Below, one piece after another: positions 3,140 to 43,320 of a stretch of 53,790 bases of DNA. The stretch spans positions 1 through 53,790 of the forward strand of contig CAZILC010000009.1 in the NCBI GenBank assembly GCA_964540055.1. Direction: 5' to 3'. The notes below the pieces were generated by a model. That model saw nothing but the letters and a program-made list of their open reading frames with translations. It did not search any database and was not told the origin of the DNA. The DNA is from an uncultured Gammaproteobacteria bacterium (lineage in GTDB: Bacteria; Patescibacteriota; Microgenomatia; Levybacterales; UBA12049). The position numbers were made by a program, and so were the translations under genes. Position 1 is the first letter of the stretch. Each line of letters opens with the position of its first letter.

Positions 3140-4657
3140 CTAGGGATTTACTCTATATAATGTGTAATATGTATTTGGAGCGAGCTTTTTAATTGAAAAA
3201 ATTTGAGTGACCGGCCAGGTTGTCGGAGCTTTACCAATTGCAGTGCATGTCGGACATGACTGATAAAAAATTATATACGTTGGCATCTTTTTACTCGCAT
3301 CAGTAAGTTCTTTAGGCGGAATACTTTCCATAGGCCAGAACCCTTGTGTCATAATGTTAGGATTTTTATCCAGATAAATTTGCAGTGCATAGGGCATAAG
3401 ACCAAAGGTGCCTTCTGTTCCCACATAGATTTTCCCGTGTTTTGCTTGTTCTTGGAGATAATCGACTGTTTGCTGTACTCCAACCCCCGATGACCAACCA
3501 TAATAGAGCTGATCCTGATCGCCACTAGCTATAAACGCGCGAGGAAAATTAGTCAGTATAAAAAAATCATTCACTAAGAACATGCTCACAAAAATAAGTG
3601 CTAATAATATTTTTAACCCAGTTTGTTTTATTTTATTCATAAGAATAAACAATGCATAAGCGCCTAATACAAGTATCGGTATTGTCATAAATAATATAAA
3701 TCTGGGATAGATAACTTTTCCGAAAAACGCCAGAGCGATAAAGGGAAAGATAAACCACGCACATAGCAATACTTTTTCTTTCCAATTTTTCTTATCCACA
3801 ATGCAGGCAACAATAGTTACAACCAAAAAAGGAATTGTCATATACTCGATAAACCAACCAAATAAACCTTTGAAATTTCCGTAAAAAAATGCAAATGGTT
3901 CCCTTATCCAATCATGAAAAGAATAAATAAATGTTAGATTTTTTTGTGCAATTATGTAAAAGAAAGGAGACAATCGAAGGATTTGATACATAACATTTGC
4001 GATAAAAACCGCAACTAATGCATAAATCGTCCAATGAAATAATCTGTTTTTGTCAAATTTTTTCTTAAAAGGGAAAAGTACTAACGTGAATGGCAACATA
4101 CCAAGTGCCAAATTTACATTGGTTTTTGTCAGCATGCCAAGGCCAGCAACAATACCAAGAATCATCCCTAAATCCAAACGTACATATCGAACCAGCAAAA
4201 TGGAAAAATAAAATATCCAAATAGTAAACATCGCGACAAGAGAATCATACAGTGCCATTTTGTCGTAAACCAAGGCGAAGGGATAAAGAACATAGAGTAA
4301 ACTTGCAAGCATTCCAATTTTGGTGTTTTTAAATAATTCTCTCCCAAGGAAAAATATACCGATCATCGAAAAAAATCCAGCAGCAACTGATACCATTCTT
4401 CCTGCAGCAAGTGGGTCATGAATAAGTTTGAGGAAAATAAGTGCAAGCCAGACATACATCGGCTGTTTGCCATCAGTTAAAGAAATAAACCGCCAGCTTG
4501 CGTCATTGAGAGCAATTTGCGACCAATGAATATATATAGCTTCGTCAGTAAATATTGGAAGAAAAGTAGATAGATGATACAGACGAGTAAAAAAATAAAG
4601 AATTATTAAACCGATAAACGCAATCGCAACCCATTTATTTTTTTGTAAACTCTTCAT
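3140..4657 (-). CDS. ArnT/PMT-like (GT39/GT83, GT-C) glycosyltransferase
   Basis: Multi-TM; IFTDEAIY loop with DE pair, GKQP, YDSL, LTK. Confidence 0.75.
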   Translation of the reverse strand: MKSLQKNKWVAIAFIGLIILYFFTRLYHLSTFLPIFTDEAIYIHWSQIALNDASWRFISLTDGKQPMYVWLALIFLKLIHDPLAAGRMVSVAAGFFSMIGIFFLGRELFKNTKIGMLASLLYVLYPFALVYDKMALYDSLVAMFTIWIFYFSILLVRYVRLDLGMILGIVAGLGMLTKTNVNLALGMLPFTLVLFPFKKKFDKNRLFHWTIYALVAVFIANVMYQILRLSPFFYIIAQKNLTFIYSFHDWIREPFAFFYGNFKGLFGWFIEYMTIPFLVVTIVACIVDKKNWKEKVLLCAWFIFPFIALAFFGKVIYPRFILFMTIPILVLGAYALFILMNKIKQTGLKILLALIFVSMFLVNDFFILTNFPRAFIASGDQDQLYYGWSSGVGVQQTVDYLQEQAKHGKIYVGTEGTFGLMPYALQIYLDKNPNIMTQGFWPMESIPPKELTDASKKMPTYIIFYQSCPTCTAIGKAPTTWPVTQIFSIKKLAPNTYYTLYRVNP

Positions 4658-4705
4658 AGAATTATCTTATTATAACGAAATAAATAATCTTACTGCAACG
4701 ACAAG

Positions 4706-6121
4706 CTAACTAAATAGAGCAACGTGCTTTGCAAATGTTTTGTTTTTAGATAAGAAAAAGATCACTGCCGGTAAAACAAAAATAAAGAGATACGTGAATA
4801 TGGGCCATATACTATTATGATAATCATAACGAAAAGAAAGCCATAAAACGGGATAGGCAAATAAAGATGTGAACGAGAACAGTACGACGAATAATTTAAA
4901 TCTCGCAACCTTTAGTAATGGAATAAGGGTTAACACCCATAATGCATACCAATTCCAATAGGCTGTTGTAAAAAAGAAAAGATAAAAAACTAACGAATAA
5001 GCATATATTAAAAGTGGATTTTGTTTGGTTCTTATTTGATACACAATAAACAAACATAAAATGAGTATAAAGGTACCAGTAAATAGTATATTAATATGAG
5101 GGTCAACCTGTCGTAAAAGATTTGGAAGGGATTGCCAATAGACTCCTGCGTTATAGCTTACTCGTTGAGCAAAAGTAATCGGACTTACCGCCATTAACCA
5201 AAAAGAAATACAATTAATGATAAGAAAACTGCCGACGAAGAGTAGAGTGTTTTTGAATGCTTTATTTTTCAACAAGGAAATAGTCAAAAAGGCAAACAAA
5301 AGAACAGGAATTATTTTCACTTGCACAGCACATGCAAGGACAATTCCTGCAAGTAAAAATCTTTTACGTTGGAAGAAAAAATAAGATAATAACGAAAAGA
5401 AGATCATAATGCTATCATTATGACCAGATCCAAAGAGTTCAACAAGAAAAAGAGGATTCCAAATAACCATTCTTAAATTTCTTGCAATATGTTGTTTATT
5501 TTTCTCAGTATCTAAAAGACACAAGTAAAGCACCCATATAATTCCAATTGCAAATAAACTGCTTACAATTTTATATAAAGCAACAAGGAGTACCACATTA
5601 TTCCTTCCAATCATTGACGGTAATGTATAAATCAGTTGGTTAACTCCTCCATACACCCTGGTTGTATTTTTCCAATCTGCCATGATTGCAAAAGGGTCAG
5701 AGTTGTGTGTTAAGGGAACTACTTGCCAGACGTTTTGGTGATATACCGTTTCGATCCTGTCTGAAAAAATGTACGAGAAAATATCAGAAGATAATCCGGG
5801 ATAGGAGAAGTAAAGAAGTAAACCAAATACCAAGCTTGAGATAATTGTTTTTTTGACAGAAATATTTTGTTTGAGTGAATAATAGTAAAAGAAAAAAGAT
5901 GCAATCGCAAAAATAGCAAAAATTAAAGTTGGAACTGTATTTATTTTATAATGCATCAGCGTTGTTTGTGTAGCAAATAAACTTGTTCGAAGAGTGGGGA
6001 AAAAATTGCTAATTGCGAGAAGTGCACGAGTATCCTGATAAAATAATATCCAGGAGAGGATAACAAAAATTACTAAACAAACTCCCAATAAAATACCGGT
6101 TGGTTGCAAAAATTTATGCAT
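4706..6121 (-). CDS. GT-C polyprenol-phosphosugar-dependent glycosyltransferase (MptA/B-like)
   Basis: SSDIFSY, VYG, WNPLFLVE, GHNDSIM, VQVK motifs; ATG at 6121 overlaps upstream stop. Confidence 0.7.
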   Translation of the reverse strand: MHKFLQPTGILLGVCLVIFVILSWILFYQDTRALLAISNFFPTLRTSLFATQTTLMHYKINTVPTLIFAIFAIASFFFYYYSLKQNISVKKTIISSLVFGLLLYFSYPGLSSDIFSYIFSDRIETVYHQNVWQVVPLTHNSDPFAIMADWKNTTRVYGGVNQLIYTLPSMIGRNNVVLLVALYKIVSSLFAIGIIWVLYLCLLDTEKNKQHIARNLRMVIWNPLFLVELFGSGHNDSIMIFFSLLSYFFFQRKRFLLAGIVLACAVQVKIIPVLLFAFLTISLLKNKAFKNTLLFVGSFLIINCISFWLMAVSPITFAQRVSYNAGVYWQSLPNLLRQVDPHINILFTGTFILILCLFIVYQIRTKQNPLLIYAYSLVFYLFFFTTAYWNWYALWVLTLIPLLKVARFKLFVVLFSFTSLFAYPVLWLSFRYDYHNSIWPIFTYLFIFVLPAVIFFLSKNKTFAKHVALFS

Positions 6122-7391
6122 GTTGTTTGTTATACGCAAATCTGAATCTCAGATGTAGCATTCTTGTGCCTATTGTTAGTAGGTATATGGCGCTACCAAT
6201 AACTCCACCCAATATTATCCAATACACAATTTTTTCAGGGAAGGTATACCAAATGCTATGCCAATCCCCTGTCGCAAGAAACGGAATATAAAGAAAAATG
6301 CTGATACTGGGAATCACAATAAAACTGAAACGTATATATTTATTACTTATAAAAGGAACAAATGGCAACACATACAAAAGATACCATGGTTGAAACGTCG
6401 TTCGTAAAGTTACAAAAAGAAGTGGAAAAAGCATGAAAGCAAAACTTAGCTGGTAAATTTTTTCTTTAATTAAATTCCATTTCTCGTGCTGCAGAAGAAC
6501 AAGAAGAAATATTGGAATAAGTGCAGCGGTTGCAAATTTAATACCGATTGAAATTGCCAACAGTAACAGACTTATCCAATATTTTTTCTGCATCAGATAA
6601 TAGAGTGCAGCAATTGCAAATGCCATCATAACAATATCATTATGACCTGAGATCAAACATTCATAAAGCAATAAAGGATTAAGAGCTATGAATGCAAGAT
6701 TTTCTACAGCTTTAGTTTCATTTACTTTTTTTAAAATCTTAAATAAATAATATATTGCAAATAGATAACTTGCGCCCATCAATATTTTAAATAAAAAGAA
6801 AGTGACAATAAAAATATTTGCTCCAATAAACGATAACGGCACAGTGATTACCAACCATAACGGTCCATATGGATAGGTGCGTTCCGTCCAATGCATAAAT
6901 CCAAGCATCGGATCCTGAGCATAATCTAAGGCTTTATGTATATAAGGATTCTGATGATAATGAGTTATGATTTTTGCATCAAATATGTAGTTGAATAAAT
7001 CATAAGAAAAAGCATTATAAGAAAATAATAAGATAATCGAAACGACACCGATGATACTCCAAACTGTATAGGAATGCATTTTTTTCTGACTAAGATGTTT
7101 CCAAACAATAAAATACAATAAAAGAAAAGTTGATGCTAGTAGAATAAATAGCTCTGCGGAAAGTGGTCTATTGAAATACCCAATATATTGAAATAATTTT
7201 TCCACAGAATATAAACTCGGAACTCTGGTAATTACTAATCCTAAATCGACTTGTGTATAGCTATAAAGTAATAATGCAATGCTTGCAATAAAATAAAAGA
7301 GAAAGATGCATTTTTCAGTAATGGTTCCTTCTCTAAACAATAACTGCAACTGTTGTTGCAAGAAAGTGAATGGTTTGAGCAGTAATTTCAT
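6114..7391 (-). CDS. GT-C polyprenol-phosphosugar-dependent glycosyltransferase (MptA/B-like)
   Basis: SYDLFNY, NPY, YPYGPLW, LNPLLLYE, GHNDIVM, IK, QPWY motifs. Confidence 0.75.
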   Translation of the reverse strand: MKLLLKPFTFLQQQLQLLFREGTITEKCIFLFYFIASIALLLYSYTQVDLGLVITRVPSLYSVEKLFQYIGYFNRPLSAELFILLASTFLLLYFIVWKHLSQKKMHSYTVWSIIGVVSIILLFSYNAFSYDLFNYIFDAKIITHYHQNPYIHKALDYAQDPMLGFMHWTERTYPYGPLWLVITVPLSFIGANIFIVTFFLFKILMGASYLFAIYYLFKILKKVNETKAVENLAFIALNPLLLYECLISGHNDIVMMAFAIAALYYLMQKKYWISLLLLAISIGIKFATAALIPIFLLVLLQHEKWNLIKEKIYQLSFAFMLFPLLFVTLRTTFQPWYLLYVLPFVPFISNKYIRFSFIVIPSISIFLYIPFLATGDWHSIWYTFPEKIVYWIILGGVIGSAIYLLTIGTRMLHLRFRFAYNKQHA

Positions 7392-12178: not shown

Positions 12179-13789
12179 TTATTGTGATTGATTTAATTTA
12201 TCAGCAAGTGCATTTATTTCATTGGCAAGAGAAGCATCATTTTTTACCATTTGGTTCTCAGAGGCGTTTAGCCACTGATTCGCTTGCATTTTTGTAAGCA
12301 CTGTTGATACATTGGCAATTCTTTGTGCAACAAGTTCATTAATCCGGTCAACATCAGCTTTATGTTGTCCATAAAAATCTGCATTATCTTTTAAAGCTGC
12401 CCAACCTGGTTGGATACCTTGGAGATTTGCAAGTGCAGTTTGCCAACTTTGAACATCCGATTGGGAATAATTTGGTGGAACATATCCAGCAAAGTGCTGA
12501 ACTATAATTTGTGTAGGACAACCATTTATTTGACCCTCAACTTCTGATATACCAACTTCATCATAGTCCTTATTTAATAAAAACTTCTGCGTGTCAGGGA
12601 AGGAAAATTGATTGTCAATAAATTCATCAGCAGTAAAATATCCTTGAGTTGTAGATTCACCATATTCTGGATCAGAAAAGCCAACTTCATTCATTGCCTG
12701 AAGCATAGTATAACCGCTTTTTTTTCCTTCAAACGAAAAATCGTCATATTTAATAATCATCTCACCTCGTTTTTGGGCAGTCTGTTCAAGTTTGTCTTCA
12801 TACTTTAATTCCGGAACTCCTGCTTCTTTTCTTTTTTTATTTAATAACTTCAGAAATTCTTGTTTATCAAGTTTTATCTTTGATGCACTGTCAAAATCTT
12901 TGCTAGTATCACGCCAGTATTTATCCCATATTCCTTTTTGAGCTGCTAATGTCAAAACATTTTGAATGTCCGAAACATCTACAAATCCAAATTCACGCGA
13001 ATCGCCACTTCCCTTTCTGTTGTCTCCCATCACAAAAACTTTACCCGTAGGAACAGTAATTCTTTTACATTCACTAAGAAATTCTTCGCCAAATGTCGTT
13101 TGCGGGCCTGCAGTGTACGGTTCTTTCAGTGGTTTCCCGTTAAGATACACAATACCACCCCTCAATTCCAATGTATCTCCTGATAATCCAATGACTCTTT
13201 TAACAAATCCACTCGGTGATCCATATTGTTTGCGTGAGATTTCGTCAGTTTTTTTATTTTCAAATATAACAATATCCCCTCGCTCTAAAGTATGGTTGAA
13301 AAATTGCGTGCCAAATACTCGAAATCCTGTCGGATATCGGTTGAACTCTGGTGTTACGACTACTTGTCCAAAATTTTCTTTATCTGACGCCCCTGTACCT
13401 TTTGGGAATGTCGGAGACATTGAACCAGTTCCGAAAATATTCTCCATTATCGGTGAATACCCAAATAATCCACCGTACAAATTGACAAATATAACAAAGG
13501 CCAATATATATGCACCAACCCAAATAGGCATTAATAAAACATTAAAAACAGTTGCGGCGAAAAAAATTAGACGGCTATGTATTCTTTTTTTTGTTTCACG
13601 GTGACTATATATCTGCCGTAACATAAAAAAAGGAAAAATTGTAACTATGCCGCAGATTTTAAACAAGAAAAATATTTTTTTCGCTAAAGAAAAAAATAAA
13701 CGCCATAGGAGAATTTTTCTGAAAAAGGACGCAAAATCGGGAAGACCCCATAGGGCATATAACCTCAATTGTCCAAGTAGCTGAGCCAT
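12179..13789 (-). CDS. lepB: Signal peptidase I (S26) fused to CAP/SCP-like domain
   Basis: GTGSMSPT (Ser), FVKRVIG (Lys), MGDNRKGSGDSREFG; then LNKKRKEAG..LKYEDKLEQTAQKR..LLNKDYDEVGI..IVQHFA (CAP-like). Confidence 0.8.
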   Translation of the reverse strand: MAQLLGQLRLYALWGLPDFASFFRKILLWRLFFSLAKKIFFLFKICGIVTIFPFFMLRQIYSHRETKKRIHSRLIFFAATVFNVLLMPIWVGAYILAFVIFVNLYGGLFGYSPIMENIFGTGSMSPTFPKGTGASDKENFGQVVVTPEFNRYPTGFRVFGTQFFNHTLERGDIVIFENKKTDEISRKQYGSPSGFVKRVIGLSGDTLELRGGIVYLNGKPLKEPYTAGPQTTFGEEFLSECKRITVPTGKVFVMGDNRKGSGDSREFGFVDVSDIQNVLTLAAQKGIWDKYWRDTSKDFDSASKIKLDKQEFLKLLNKKRKEAGVPELKYEDKLEQTAQKRGEMIIKYDDFSFEGKKSGYTMLQAMNEVGFSDPEYGESTTQGYFTADEFIDNQFSFPDTQKFLLNKDYDEVGISEVEGQINGCPTQIIVQHFAGYVPPNYSQSDVQSWQTALANLQGIQPGWAALKDNADFYGQHKADVDRINELVAQRIANVSTVLTKMQANQWLNASENQMVKNDASLANEINALADKLNQSQ

Positions 13790-40891: not shown

Positions 40892-41254
40892 TCAACTTTT
40901 CACGTATTTTCTTACAATGTAGAGGAGATCGTCTATATTAAATGGTTTGAGGAGAAAATCGTCAGCTCCAACTTCTTTTGTTATTCTCTCTGTTGCGTTA
41001 TTGGCCGACATCAAGACCAGCGGAATGGTCTTTGTATCATCTTTCGATTTGAGATGCTTGGCAATTTTGCCTCCATCTTCACCAAAGAGCCATATATCCA
41101 TAAGAATCATATCAGGACTGTGATTTGCGATTGTCTCATGGACTGTTTTACTTTGATCAGCGGTAAATACGTCATACCCGTCATTTTCTAGAATTATCTT
41201 TACTACATCAACTATAGCTTTATCGTCCTCTGCAATAAGAATTTTCTTTTTCAT
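40892..41254 (-). CDS. Single-domain response regulator
   Basis: IAEDD, LMDIWL, MSA, LLKPF. Confidence 0.9.
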   Translation of the reverse strand: MKKKILIAEDDKAIVDVVKIILENDGYDVFTADQSKTVHETIANHSPDMILMDIWLFGEDGGKIAKHLKSKDDTKTIPLVLMSANNATERITKEVGADDFLLKPFNIDDLLYIVRKYVKS

Positions 41255-41262
41255 ACGTAATT

Positions 41263-41889
41263 TCAGTTTTGTGCTACTAATGTAGAATATACCACAAGTC
41301 GATCCGAATAGTTCTTGGTATTTTTATCCCAAACGCCATTGCAGGTGATAAGATTGAGCATAGGAGTCTGAGAGGCTCCAAAAACTTCTTGAATTGGAAA
41401 GTTATTATAAGGATACCTCACTATCCGACTTACTGCAAATATGTATTTTCTATCATTATTTTCAGAAACTAGTATGTGATCCCCGACGCTCAGCAACTTT
41501 AAGTTCCAAAATACAGCTGGAGCACCTGTTACCTTATCCAAATGTCCATCAATTACCGCACTACCATTCATTCCTGGTTTGTACCCTGGGCTATACCATG
41601 CTGTATCGTCTGCCCTTTTAGGTATATCCATCCTTCCCTGAGCATCCATTTTTACAGATTCTACTGCAGCACTAACATGGATTTTGGGAATGGTTATGGT
41701 AAGAGGGATTCCAGGAGGGACTGAAGGTCTAGGCGTTGGATCAGGCGTTGGCAATTGCTTCTGTTCTTGGGCCAAAATTGCCTCAACTTGTTGCTTCGCA
41801 TGACTCGTAGTATGGGTTAGCATACTTCCGAAAATAATTCCGGTTATACTACCAACTAATATTATAACTAAGAGCAGATTGTTCTTCAT
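41263..41889 (-). CDS. Class F sortase
   Basis: N-terminal TM, ITIPKI, AWY..PG..GSAVIDGHLD, VFWNL, LNLITC.G.WD..YSDRLVV (His/Cys/Arg triad intact); ATG 41889 lies 7 nt after TAGAAT. Confidence 0.9.
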   Translation of the reverse strand: MKNNLLLVIILVGSITGIIFGSMLTHTTSHAKQQVEAILAQEQKQLPTPDPTPRPSVPPGIPLTITIPKIHVSAAVESVKMDAQGRMDIPKRADDTAWYSPGYKPGMNGSAVIDGHLDKVTGAPAVFWNLKLLSVGDHILVSENNDRKYIFAVSRIVRYPYNNFPIQEVFGASQTPMLNLITCNGVWDKNTKNYSDRLVVYSTLVAQN

Positions 41890-41985
41890 ACATTGTATTC
41901 TACGGAGCAAAACGCCATTTTTTAGAATACCTCACGTCTCATTTCGTTTTGCTCCCTTCTTTTTCAAAACGACTCTTTTTACAAA

Positions 41986-42162
41986 TTATTTAGCTCGACC
42001 TGTTGCTGGTGCTGCTGTTGGAGCACTAGCTGCTGCTGTCGGAGTAACTGTTGTTGTAGAAGTAGTCGGTGCAGTTGTGGCAGTTTGAGCAAATGTAAGT
42101 GTTGCTGCTGCCATAGCAGATACTGCGAAAACACCTGTTGCGATTACGGCTTTTTTGATCAT
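41986..42162 (-). CDS. 58-aa secreted Thr/Ala-rich peptide ending in sortase-like motif APATG-RAK
   Basis: Not in ORF track. SD AGGAGGTGA then ATG; MIKKAVIATGVFAVSAMAAATLTFA|QTATTAPTTSTTTVTPTAAASAPTAAPATGRAK. Confidence 0.85.
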   Translation of the reverse strand: MIKKAVIATGVFAVSAMAAATLTFAQTATTAPTTSTTTVTPTAAASAPTAAPATGRAK

Positions 42163-42190
42163 ATTATCACCTCCTTCCTTTAATAAAATC

Positions 42191-42207
42191 TTTAAGACTA
42201 TTTTAAG
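42191..42207. promoter_or_regulatory. OmpR-family (CiaR/PmrA-type) direct-repeat box candidate
   Basis: TTTAAG-ACTAT-TTTAAG between the divergent peptide and KGG genes. Confidence 0.35.
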
Positions 42208-42441
42208 TAAAACTAGTTACTGTCAATATAATCAAAACTCTCAAGTAATCAAGGCTATCCTAACATACCCTACATACTCAGTCAACAATATGTCAGATTT
42301 CTTACATCCCAGTAAACCTGAATCATATAAAACTCATACATATGGTTCTAAAATAAACTCTTGCGTTTTCCTTACAGGATTTTCTTTGAACTCTTATGCT
42401 AAAAAATTATCCTTTATTGCAGAGAGGAGGTGAAAATAACA

Positions 42442-42630
42442 ATGGCAAATGCAACAACAAAAAAAGGAAAAGGTCGCGGTTTTGCGTCAATGGATAAGAG
42501 TAAACAGCGAATGATCGCCAGTAAAGGTGGTAAAGCCGCACACAAAAAAGGAACTGCTCACACATGGACGAGTGAAGAAGCAAGAAAAGCTGGTCAACTC
42601 GGCGGTCGGGCACGGCAGAAAAGAACATAG
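42442..42630 (+). CDS. KGG-domain stress-induced protein (YciG/Con-10-like)
   Basis: RGFASMD..QRMIASKGGKAAH.KG.AH.W.SEEARKAG..GG; SD AGGAGGTGA. Confidence 0.9.
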   Translation: MANATTKKGKGRGFASMDKSKQRMIASKGGKAAHKKGTAHTWTSEEARKAGQLGGRARQKRT

Positions 42631-42698
42631 TGCCAAACCAGATTCTGTCCTGGTATAGACAGAGCAATCGTTACTTCTAAAAGAAAGGAGGTGAATTA

Positions 42699-42950
42699 AT
42701 GAATATTTTATCTTGGATACTTTTCGGTCTAGTCGTAGGTATCATTGCCAATGCGATTGACCCATCACCAAACAAAAGCGGCGTAACCGGATCAATATTA
42801 TTAGGTGTAGTAGGAGCACTCGTCGGAGGACTTCTCGCAAATCTGATGTTTGGAATTACTGTAACTGGATTTAGTATCACTACTTTCTTAGTAGCGATTG
42901 CAGGATCTTTATTGTTACTCTTCTTCGGAAAAGCAATGAGAAGAGTATAA
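42699..42950 (+). CDS. GlsB/YeaQ/YmgE family stress-response membrane protein
   Basis: ILSWILFGLVVGIIA..P..G...SILLGVVGALVGG..G..VAIAGSLLLL. Confidence 0.9.
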   Translation: MNILSWILFGLVVGIIANAIDPSPNKSGVTGSILLGVVGALVGGLLANLMFGITVTGFSITTFLVAIAGSLLLLFFGKAMRRV

Positions 42951-42960
42951 AATTACAAAC

Positions 42961-42992
42961 GAAATTCGATGGTAAACGTTATTTCGAATTTC
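42961..42992. repeat. Intergenic inverted repeat
   Basis: GAAATTCGA-N14-TCGAATTTC. Confidence 0.5.
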
Positions 42993-43023
42993 AAAAAATA
43001 CTACCTGAAAGGAGGTGAATAAT

Positions 43024-43320
43024 ATGTTACATACAGATGACAATACAAATCATCCACATCATCATAATAAAGATGTTGTAATGGCAGGACTCGCAGGAAT
43101 TCTTGCAGGTGCCGCAAGTATTACAGCAATAGCTCTTACAGATAGAGAAATAAGGAAAAAGGTTGGCAAAAAAGCCAATCACCTTAAATCATCTCTGCAG
43201 GATTGGAGTGTGGATAAATTACATATGGTTGAACACCATAAACCCAAAGTAATGGATGCTGTAGAAAGAACAGAAAAAATTACTGAAGAAAAAAGAGAAG
43301 ATGAACCACTGGGTACCTAA
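43024..43320 (+). CDS. YtxH-like small protein
   Basis: AGLAGILAGAASITAIALTDREIRKK: Gly/Ala hydrophobic helix then charged coil; SD AGGAGGTGA. Confidence 0.55.
   Translation: MLHTDDNTNHPHHHNKDVVMAGLAGILAGAASITAIALTDREIRKKVGKKANHLKSSLQDWSVDKLHMVEHHKPKVMDAVERTEKITEEKREDEPLGT

Follow-up and report, generated by a model that had tools for sequence, protein, structure and literature searches.

What does a sortase do with a secreted substrate that has no anchor? The question is raised by a contig from an uncultured bacterium that is named as a gammaproteobacterium in GenBank and placed in the Patescibacteriota by GTDB (Microgenomatia; Levybacterales; UBA12049). The window analysed here is the whole stretch of 53,790 nucleotides (assembly GCA_964540055.1, contig CAZILC010000009.1, positions 1 to 53,790, forward strand). 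It holds a 58-codon open reading frame (ORF), the mini-ORF, directly upstream of a gene for a class-F-like sortase. The encoded mini-peptide begins with a signal peptide and ends in a sortase motif plus three residues. We argue that this mini-peptide is very probably the cognate substrate of the adjacent sortase, judging from a motif shared with anchored substrates and from a model of the complex. The elements of the pair are as follows.

41986..42162, minus strand: mini-ORF for the putative tail-less sortase substrate precursor, 58 codons plus TAA
42088..42162, minus strand: signal peptide, residues 1-25 (MIKK, hydrophobic core, TFA), with the signal-peptidase site before Q26 predicted by the -3/-1 rule
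42013..42087, minus strand: low-complexity Thr/Ala/Pro/Ser spacer, residues 26-50, starting with an invariant Gln
41998..42012, minus strand: sortase motif APATG, residues 51-55, with predicted cleavage between T54 and G55
41989..41997, minus strand: RAK tail of three residues, the presumed leaving group, with no hydrophobic helix after it
42167..42175, minus strand: Shine-Dalgarno sequence AGGAGGTGA, 4 nt ahead of the mini-ORF ATG
42197..42226, minus strand: promoter-like TTGACA-18 nt-AATAGT just upstream of the mini-ORF (10/12 consensus matches; a consensus match only)
41263..41889, minus strand: class-F-like sortase, 208 amino acids (aa) plus stop, in the same orientation as the mini-ORF

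A sequence-only reading of this DNA had described the 58-aa ORF, its Shine-Dalgarno site, the signal peptide ending TFA before Q and the APATG-RAK end. All of these are confirmed at the coordinates above, as is the co-oriented sortase 96 bp downstream with its His/Cys/Arg triad intact. The predicted mature mini-peptide is 33 aa long, and 12 Thr and 10 Ala can be counted on its translation. The stretch put forward as cleavable by the sortase is VPSGAPATGRAK. Searches of Pfam and NCBIfam, anchor models included, return zero family matches for the mini-peptide, and its database copies have either no name or that of 'hypothetical protein'.

In the sortase, a membrane helix at the N-terminus (residues 3-23) is followed by a Pro/Thr-rich linker and then by the catalytic barrel (about residues 62-207). 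The sortase ATG at 41889 is separated from the mini-ORF by a 96-nt gap (41890-41985). The triad of H116 (codon at 41542-41544), C183 (41341-41343, within LITC) and R197 (41299-41301) is invariant in 16/16 aligned homologues. The Pfam profile PF04203 scores 71 bits against a cut-off of 26.6, with residues 65-205 spanning all 125 profile positions. The class F assignment of the sequence-only reading stands in part. NCBIfam class_F_sortase (NF033748) leads the other families by about 110 bits (136.5 bits, with class E next at 26.6), but the score does not reach the curated cut-off of 166. That cut-off is missed by 10/10 relatives tested (117.5-152.2 bits), Bacillaceae and Chloroflexota among them. 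On these profile scores the enzyme is best named 'class-F-like'. Its AlphaFold2 model (mean predicted local distance difference test score, pLDDT, 83.6) shows the N-terminal helix, a disordered Pro/Thr linker and the barrel. The top Foldseek matches of this model are all sortases, of classes A, E, C and D (probability 1.00, E about 4e-9, TM-score 0.5-0.78). The single sortase sequence finds no match in the PDB; the nearest PDB sequence match needs a profile (E 7e-9), and the clade is without a solved structure. The 1.58-Mb genome has seven sortase-domain genes.

The first matter to settle is whether the pairing is an accident. A six-frame scan of the whole genome finds 58 stop-to-stop frames that end in xPxTG followed by at most 6 aa. 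Only three of these start like a signal peptide, and two of the three abut class-F-like sortase genes, so the pair exceeds what chance would give. One is the mini-ORF of the window and the other is C5:8212-8469. This second pair (contig C5:7442-9096, which is locus L032:290-1944) has a Thr/Asn-rich mini-peptide of 79 aa ending APKTGFQPK. Two divergent class-F-like sortase genes flank it; the gap to the downstream one is only about 30 nt and has no hairpin. The same sortase-peptide-sortase order is found in L059, and the complete genome of a relative, G012, has three peptide-sortase pairs.

The pairing extends well beyond this genome. Homologues of the sortase (E <= 1e-10) are present in 23 of 61 related genomes, and 25 of the 30 loci returned from relatives have an upstream, co-oriented ORF of 53-85 aa with the same build. 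A scan of species-representative genomes gave 492 sortase relatives. Among the best 80 of these, all loci from named genomes, 22 have the mini-ORF, and all 22 fall within the Patescibacterial clade of the sortase tree. The record titles of the mini-ORF loci name Levyibacteriota, Roizmanbacteria and Daviesbacteria, and several read 'uncultured Gammaproteobacteria'. It must be noted that these last labels look wrong: L041, L042, L044, L045, L047, L048 and others have a sortase and mini-peptide of the Patescibacterial clade under the title 'uncultured Gammaproteobacteria bacterium', and one such record is titled Methylomirabilota. Once identical rows are removed, 40 distinct loci remain, all from Patescibacteria of the Microgenomates group.

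What is kept across these loci is the two ends of the mini-peptide, even where the sortases are down to about 35% identical. Q26, P52, T54 and G55 are invariant in the 39 aligned mini-peptides, and A25 and P48 are nearly so. A signal-peptidase site of the type xxA before Q occurs in 39/40 loci. The extended motif has the consensus [VM]-P-[ST]-x-A-P-x-T-G-[RFML]-[GA], its first core position being Ala in 36 of the 40. The tail after PxTG is 1-7 aa long in every one. The residue right after the motif Gly is Arg in 17/40 and Phe, Met or Leu in another 17/40, and it is basic in 18/40. The predicted mature part varies from 17 to 51 aa. Thr makes up 31% of the family's composition, Pro 16%, Ala 12% and Ser 9%, and there is no Cys. 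A mini-peptide profile run against 1.84 billion cluster representatives (library clustered at 50% identity, E <= 1e-3) matches 322 of them. Among the best 150 of the 322, 148 end in PxTG plus 1-8 aa, and 143 of these 148 have the A-before-Q site; the two exceptions are one unrelated repeat protein and one sequence with PEAG. Both the linkage and the terminal PxTG, whose loss in homologues the sequence-only reading had named beforehand as fatal to it, are conserved across the 40 loci.

The DNA itself behaves like a coding sequence under selection. A GGAGG-like site precedes 38 of the 40 homologous mini-ORFs. The signal-peptide codons of 14 genus-level copies (91 pairs) differ at 668 synonymous against 388 non-synonymous places, and several invariant signal-peptide residues are encoded by two to four different codons. 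In genus-level relatives (L009-L037) the signal peptide is 73-96% identical, versus 37-65% for the sortase domain. The synonymous changes mean that this similarity comes from selection on the peptide, and not from recent copying. Such high conservation suggests that the signal peptide has a function beyond export. We regard the mini-ORF, from its conservation at the sequence level, as a real, conserved and presumably translated gene that is linked to the sortase.

If the gene is real, is its product the substrate of the neighbouring enzyme? One line of reasoning is to ask what related sortases have beside them. We built a sortase tree of 105 rows with a quick IQ-TREE search, after dropping identical catalytic domains. 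The classes of the neighbours were corrected by hand: two L035 rows and L102 are not mini, L068 and L103 are not classic, and L030 was set to classic. All 42 mini-associated rows fall in one group of 51 rows that is entirely Patescibacterial (SH-aLRT 83). The mini label changes 5 times on this tree against a mean of 33 when shuffled, a value reached in 0/500 shuffles. In the Bacillota clade of 26 rows a classic substrate adjoins the sortase in 23. These substrates end in M-P-S-E-M-P-x-T-G-M-G-G followed by a helix of about 20 residues and RKK; the two that were scanned are DUF4397 proteins. The motif common to the Bacillota substrates and the mini-peptides is P-[ST]-x-[AM]-P-x-T-G-[MFLR]-G. 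This shared extended motif means that the mini-peptides have the first half of a sorting signal that is homologous to the Bacillota one. Since the anchored Bacillaceae substrates have the same motif, the peptide is very likely the sortase's own substrate, minus the passenger and the anchor.

Other sortases in and around this lineage have kept the whole signal. The genome's own sortases on contigs C14 and C34 adjoin proteins with motif, helix and basic tail, so the organism uses the classical signal too, and the genome-wide scan lists further signals of this kind. In a Patescibacterial clade of paralogous sortases (L030, L034, L036) the partner proteins are about 390-415 aa long. LPNTG is the terminal motif of two of them and FPNAG that of the L034 partner; the L036 partner has a classic anchor, and those of the other two loci are degenerate. 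The L036 partner, the only one scanned, is Ice_binding-like (PF11999). For the class-F-like sortases of Chloroflexota (L052-L113, 17 rows) no substrate was recognised within 1.5 kb, for which the filter, short flanks, high GC or a genuine biological difference are possible causes. As a side observation, these Chloroflexota sortases sit in very long open frames (e.g. L052:622-1944).

The complex model is a separate argument. Peptide and sortase modelled together give a median score of 0.70, and the best of three controls gives 0.02. The 0.70 mark is reached by 58/80 solved complexes and 2/110 mismatched pairs, a calibration that is only rough for this pair since we modelled it from alignments of our own. 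At least 72% of contacts are shared between the runs, with a partner pLDDT of at least 58. The modelled interface places peptide residues 45-58 against sortase residues 87, 89, 114, H116, 181-183 and R197. P52 contacts 87, 89, 114 and 181, T54 contacts H116/117 and A51 contacts R197. Both the extended motif in common with the Bacillota substrates and the modelled complex thus speak for the peptide as a sortase substrate.

The absence of the hydrophobic helix needs to be secure, and we argue that it is. One can imagine an anchor hidden behind the stop codon and reached by read-through or frameshift. This was ruled out, as no helix plus basic tail is found in any of the 40 loci. The stops are TAA in 29, TAG in 10 and TGA in 1, a spread that makes recoding implausible. 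The only hydrophobic stretches within 150 nt downstream of the mini-ORFs are the N-terminal membrane helices of the sortases themselves. No longer or fused form of the mini-peptide was found among 8000 scored candidates of 140-2000 aa, which is weak evidence. The missing helix noted in the sequence-only reading is therefore confirmed by the conservation and read-through checks.

We favour, with moderate confidence, the explanation that this is a dedicated enzyme-substrate pair in which the peptide is moved to an amine of the envelope, the wall being likeliest. The scenario that we infer, from export through cleavage and retention to the acceptor, would run as follows. The 58-aa precursor would be exported via Sec. 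Its still-embedded signal peptide would hold the motif near the sortase, in place of the classical C-terminal helix and basic tail; such retention could work because the peptide is so short. The signal-peptide conservation described above fits this role without proving it. The membrane-anchored sortase would recognise (V/M)P(S/T)xAPxTG and cleave between T54 and G55, with RAK released. The resulting Thr/Pro/Ala-rich peptide of about 29 residues would then be transferred to an envelope amine, most likely that of the wall or of a peptidoglycan precursor. The outcome would be a wall-anchored protein cut down to its wall-spanning stalk, with no passenger domain and no C-terminal anchor. For the wall or lipid II as the acceptor in particular we see an even chance.

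There are precedents in the literature. Every characterised non-pilus sortase is reported to use a wall-precursor amine as the acceptor (PMC8225981). Sortase A (SrtA) of Staphylococcus aureus is reported to put exogenous, anchor-less LPETG peptides into the wall, and 20-fold more of them when basic residues are added at the C-terminus (PMC4723074). AbpA of oral streptococci, which ends in LPKTS-AVK and has no hydrophobic domain, is described as wall-anchored and laddered by the adjacent SrtB (Sci Rep 2016, PMC4974636). The SrtA uptake and AbpA together make an anchor-less substrate credible.

Several observations weigh against this explanation. A soluble peptide without a C-terminal anchor could escape unprocessed, and AbpA is reported to be partly in the supernatant (PMC4974636). 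In the mini-peptide clade, 9 of the 51 sortases lack a mini-ORF within 1.5 kb; either the pairing is optional or those genomes have the partner at another place. Support for a single origin in the tree is modest, at SH-aLRT 83 from a quick search, and since the loci are mutually related the counts are not independent events. One of the three complex-model runs scored only 0.34, and the score of the model may reflect likeness to solved sortase-peptide complexes such as 7s4o.

How much of the peptide is made? The gap between the two genes holds a further element.

41904..41955, minus strand: RNA hairpin in the peptide-sortase spacer, core GGAGCAAAACG / CGTTTTGCTCC, with no T-run after it

In the window it folds at -18.6 kcal/mol (z -1.88). 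Across 16 relatives it has 15 pairs with 95.4% of cells paired, and 11 pairs are changed on both sides. None of 500 shuffles is as high, and slid controls are 35-50% paired. The G-U pairs put the hairpin on the mRNA strand. Rfam gives it sub-threshold matches only, and those on the opposite strand. A consensus scan finds no intrinsic terminator between the peptide and sortase genes, and the 20 nt before the sortase ATG have no Shine-Dalgarno-like sequence. We take the hairpin as a candidate stabilising or attenuating 3' structure that would favour the peptide message; it might also be a processing site. A strong ribosome-binding site for the peptide, the hairpin and the absence of a sortase Shine-Dalgarno sequence fit an arrangement of much substrate and little enzyme. 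The peptide may be abundant, as the sequence-only reading had it, to judge by its strong ribosome-binding site, the promoter-like sequence and the hairpin behind the gene. The sole RNA-labelled cover of the stretch is a single contig in one run recorded as RNA. It is 168 nt long and covers 41975-42142 with 4 differences, which is weak evidence since DNA is possible in such libraries. Its two differences away from the contig's ends are a synonymous one in T49 and A43T in the spacer. DNA runs that hold small shares of the stretch (X4, X6), like places with no cover, say nothing on expression.

Even if the peptide is the substrate, the acceptor could be something other than peptidoglycan. The hydrophilic Thr/Pro tail might serve as a tag on some other part of the envelope, be it a protein of the S-layer or a pilus, a lipid amine or a secondary polymer. 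These bacteria have unusual envelopes, with seven sortase-domain genes and 26 PMT_2 matches in a 1.58-Mb genome. The genome's other sortase classes keep classic anchored substrates, which suggests that this clade acts differently. Against this, the characterised non-pilus sortases all use the wall-precursor amine in the source cited above (PMC8225981), and the more distant loci have no conserved third gene beside the pair. We consider a non-wall acceptor unlikely.

A second possibility is that the peptide is its own acceptor. The alpha-amine of Gln26 would attack the Thr54 acyl-enzyme, and the sortase would join peptides head-to-tail or into a macrocycle of about 29 residues. Sortase A cyclises or oligomerises peptides that have an N-terminal nucleophile plus LPXTG. 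We know of no sortase that uses a Gln alpha-amine as the nucleophile. The Gln at +1 is invariant in 39/39 aligned peptides and present in 143 of the 148 terminal-motif matches among the best 150. It occurs in just 3 of 162 other signal-peptide-like ORFs of the genome, a rough comparison since the rule is crude and membrane proteins are included. But an N-terminal Gln readily becomes pyroglutamate, which blocks the nucleophile, and protection of the N-terminus explains an invariant Gln equally well. The glutaminyl cyclase Glu_cyclase_2 (PF05096) was not found in the organism's own genome, which is 82.6% complete; this is uninformative because N-terminal Gln cyclises spontaneously. The complex model is confident only for residues 45-58. 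Two sortases flank one peptide gene in L032 and L059, recalling the two-sortase logic of pili, and SrtB-dependent AbpA ladders are described in vitro (PMC4974636). We think polymers or rings of this kind quite unlikely. Just as doubtful is the fuller version, in which the invariant Gln as acceptor would lead to long, wall-tethered and probably O-glycosylated Thr/Pro polymers or rings, with the conserved signal peptide as a transient anchor. Polymerisation through Lys was considered separately and is excluded, as only 1/40 mature peptides has a Lys upstream of the motif. For the same reason the self-ligation raised in the sequence-only reading is unlikely in its Lys-based form.

A third possibility is that the peptide is a regulator or signal, either as a pseudo-substrate occupying the enzyme or as a secreted peptide that the sortase trims, with nearby two-component genes sensing the trimming. 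It draws on the genes that surround the pair.

40892..41254, minus strand: receiver-only response regulator (PF00072, 78.8 bits), starting 8 nt after the sortase stop and followed by lon
42430-43320, plus strand: three small stress-type genes, for a KGG-repeat protein, a Transgly_assoc (GlsB/YeaQ-type) membrane protein and an unassigned 101-aa protein, divergent from the peptide gene

The response regulator is probably in the same operon as the sortase, and histidine kinases and stress genes (KGG, Transgly_assoc) lie around the locus. In family-level relatives the order Transgly_assoc-KGG and, divergently, peptide-sortase-REC-Lon recurs, and a REC domain gene is beside the sortase in L025, L055, L080 and L069. 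Loss of AbpA is reported to change two-component gene expression in Streptococcus gordonii (PMC4974636). However, the distant loci of family f2 keep the pair without REC or Lon in their flanks; since they keep only peptide and sortase, the two-gene pair is the core. The middle of the peptide is free in length (17-51 aa mature) and in sequence, as in a spacer and not a specific ligand, and the strong ribosome-binding site suggests bulk production. A regulatory role is very improbable on this evidence. Finally, the ORF is short, of low complexity, without a Pfam or NCBIfam match and 'hypothetical protein' where it is named, but there is next to no chance that it is spurious, whether a chance-open frame or a decayed classic substrate, because that is contradicted by the two intact ends in 40 loci, the 322 profile matches, the Shine-Dalgarno-like sites in 38/40 and the excess of synonymous over non-synonymous codon changes.

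The cognate enzyme-substrate pair that we favour is best compared with AbpA and SrtB. In both, the substrate gene adjoins a dedicated accessory sortase, and the motif is followed by three residues only (LPKTS-AVK there, APATG-RAK here) with no hydrophobic domain or long charged tail. The AbpA sorting signal is described as necessary and sufficient for wall anchoring and as cleaved after Thr, and the N-terminal signal sequence is conserved among AbpA homologues too (PMC4974636). The differences are also clear. The AbpA adhesin is a folded protein of about 200 aa, whereas here there is a low-complexity stalk of about 29 aa without a passenger domain. SrtB is of a class-B-like subfamily in Firmicutes with the motif LPxTS, and the present enzyme is class-F-like, in Patescibacteria, with APxTG. 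Lysines adjoin the motif of AbpA, which is polymerised; the mini-peptides are without such lysines. The likeness is mechanistic and not one of family, since the sortase scores best to class F and the peptide matches no family.

The nearest relatives of the enzyme outside the Patescibacteria and Chloroflexota are the class-F-like sortases of Bacillaceae. They too have an upstream, co-oriented substrate gene with the motif P-[ST]-x-[AM]-P-x-T-G-[ML]-G-G. Their substrates are about 265-280 aa (the two scanned have two DUF4397 domains each) and carry the full three-part signal, and the mini-peptide has neither. We found no paper on this sortase/DUF4397 pairing in the open-access literature. Class F proper (NF033748; prototype SrtF of Cutibacterium acnes, PMC8225981) shares the triad, the N-terminal membrane anchor and a motif ending in TG, but the prototype is reported there to recognise LPXTG on classic anchored proteins. 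Compared with the classical wall sorting signal, the mini-peptides have the N-terminal signal peptide, the Pro/Thr-rich wall-spanning region and the PxTG core. They differ in having no hydrophobic domain or passenger, a tail of 1-7 aa, and Ala in place of Leu (36/40). They differ from sortase-assembled pilins in having no conserved lysine nucleophile (Lys in 1/40).

No paper on the mini-peptide/sortase pair was found in open-access papers and preprints, supplements not included. Sortases are described as near-ubiquitous in Microgenomates (PMC6744442), and we found no substrate or role for them in the open-access literature. We propose a family of substrates with neither passenger nor tail that goes with a class-F-like sortase clade of the candidate phyla radiation (CPR), AbpA-SrtB being already known as a tail-less precedent. 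A large natural family, with no fewer than 322 clusters at 50% identity, would do without the textbook three-part sorting signal. Standard annotation misses this candidate CPR surface component as the gene is short and of low complexity. With this pair, a sortase clade without a solved structure gains a concrete candidate substrate, short enough to synthesise at about 12 residues, and the enzyme and motif might find use in orthogonal ligation. Should the product be a wall-linked and possibly glycosylated brush, it would bear on how episymbionts show their surface to hosts and phages. If instead the Gln were the acceptor, these ultra-small episymbiotic bacteria would have a mucin-like coat that is ribosomally encoded and built by a sortase.

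It remains to consider glycosylation of the peptide, which the sequence-only reading had offered as a possibility, by GT-C enzymes of the window. The PMT_2 and GT87 genes are at 3140-6139, about 36 kb from the pair. PMT_2 is found in 61/61 related genomes, several in each, with or without the pair. Since the sortase is in only 23/61, co-occurrence is uninformative on glycosylation, and O-glycosylation of the peptide by these enzymes has no specific support. The analogy with antifreeze glycopeptides is one of composition alone. With 26 PMT_2 matches, the genome is in any case heavily committed to glycosylating its envelope for its small size. Besides the GT87-like gene the window holds two Acyl_transf_3 proteins of 659 aa. 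It also encodes, at 12179-13789 on the minus strand, an unusual 536-aa protein that fuses signal-peptidase S26 and CAP (cysteine-rich secretory protein) domains.

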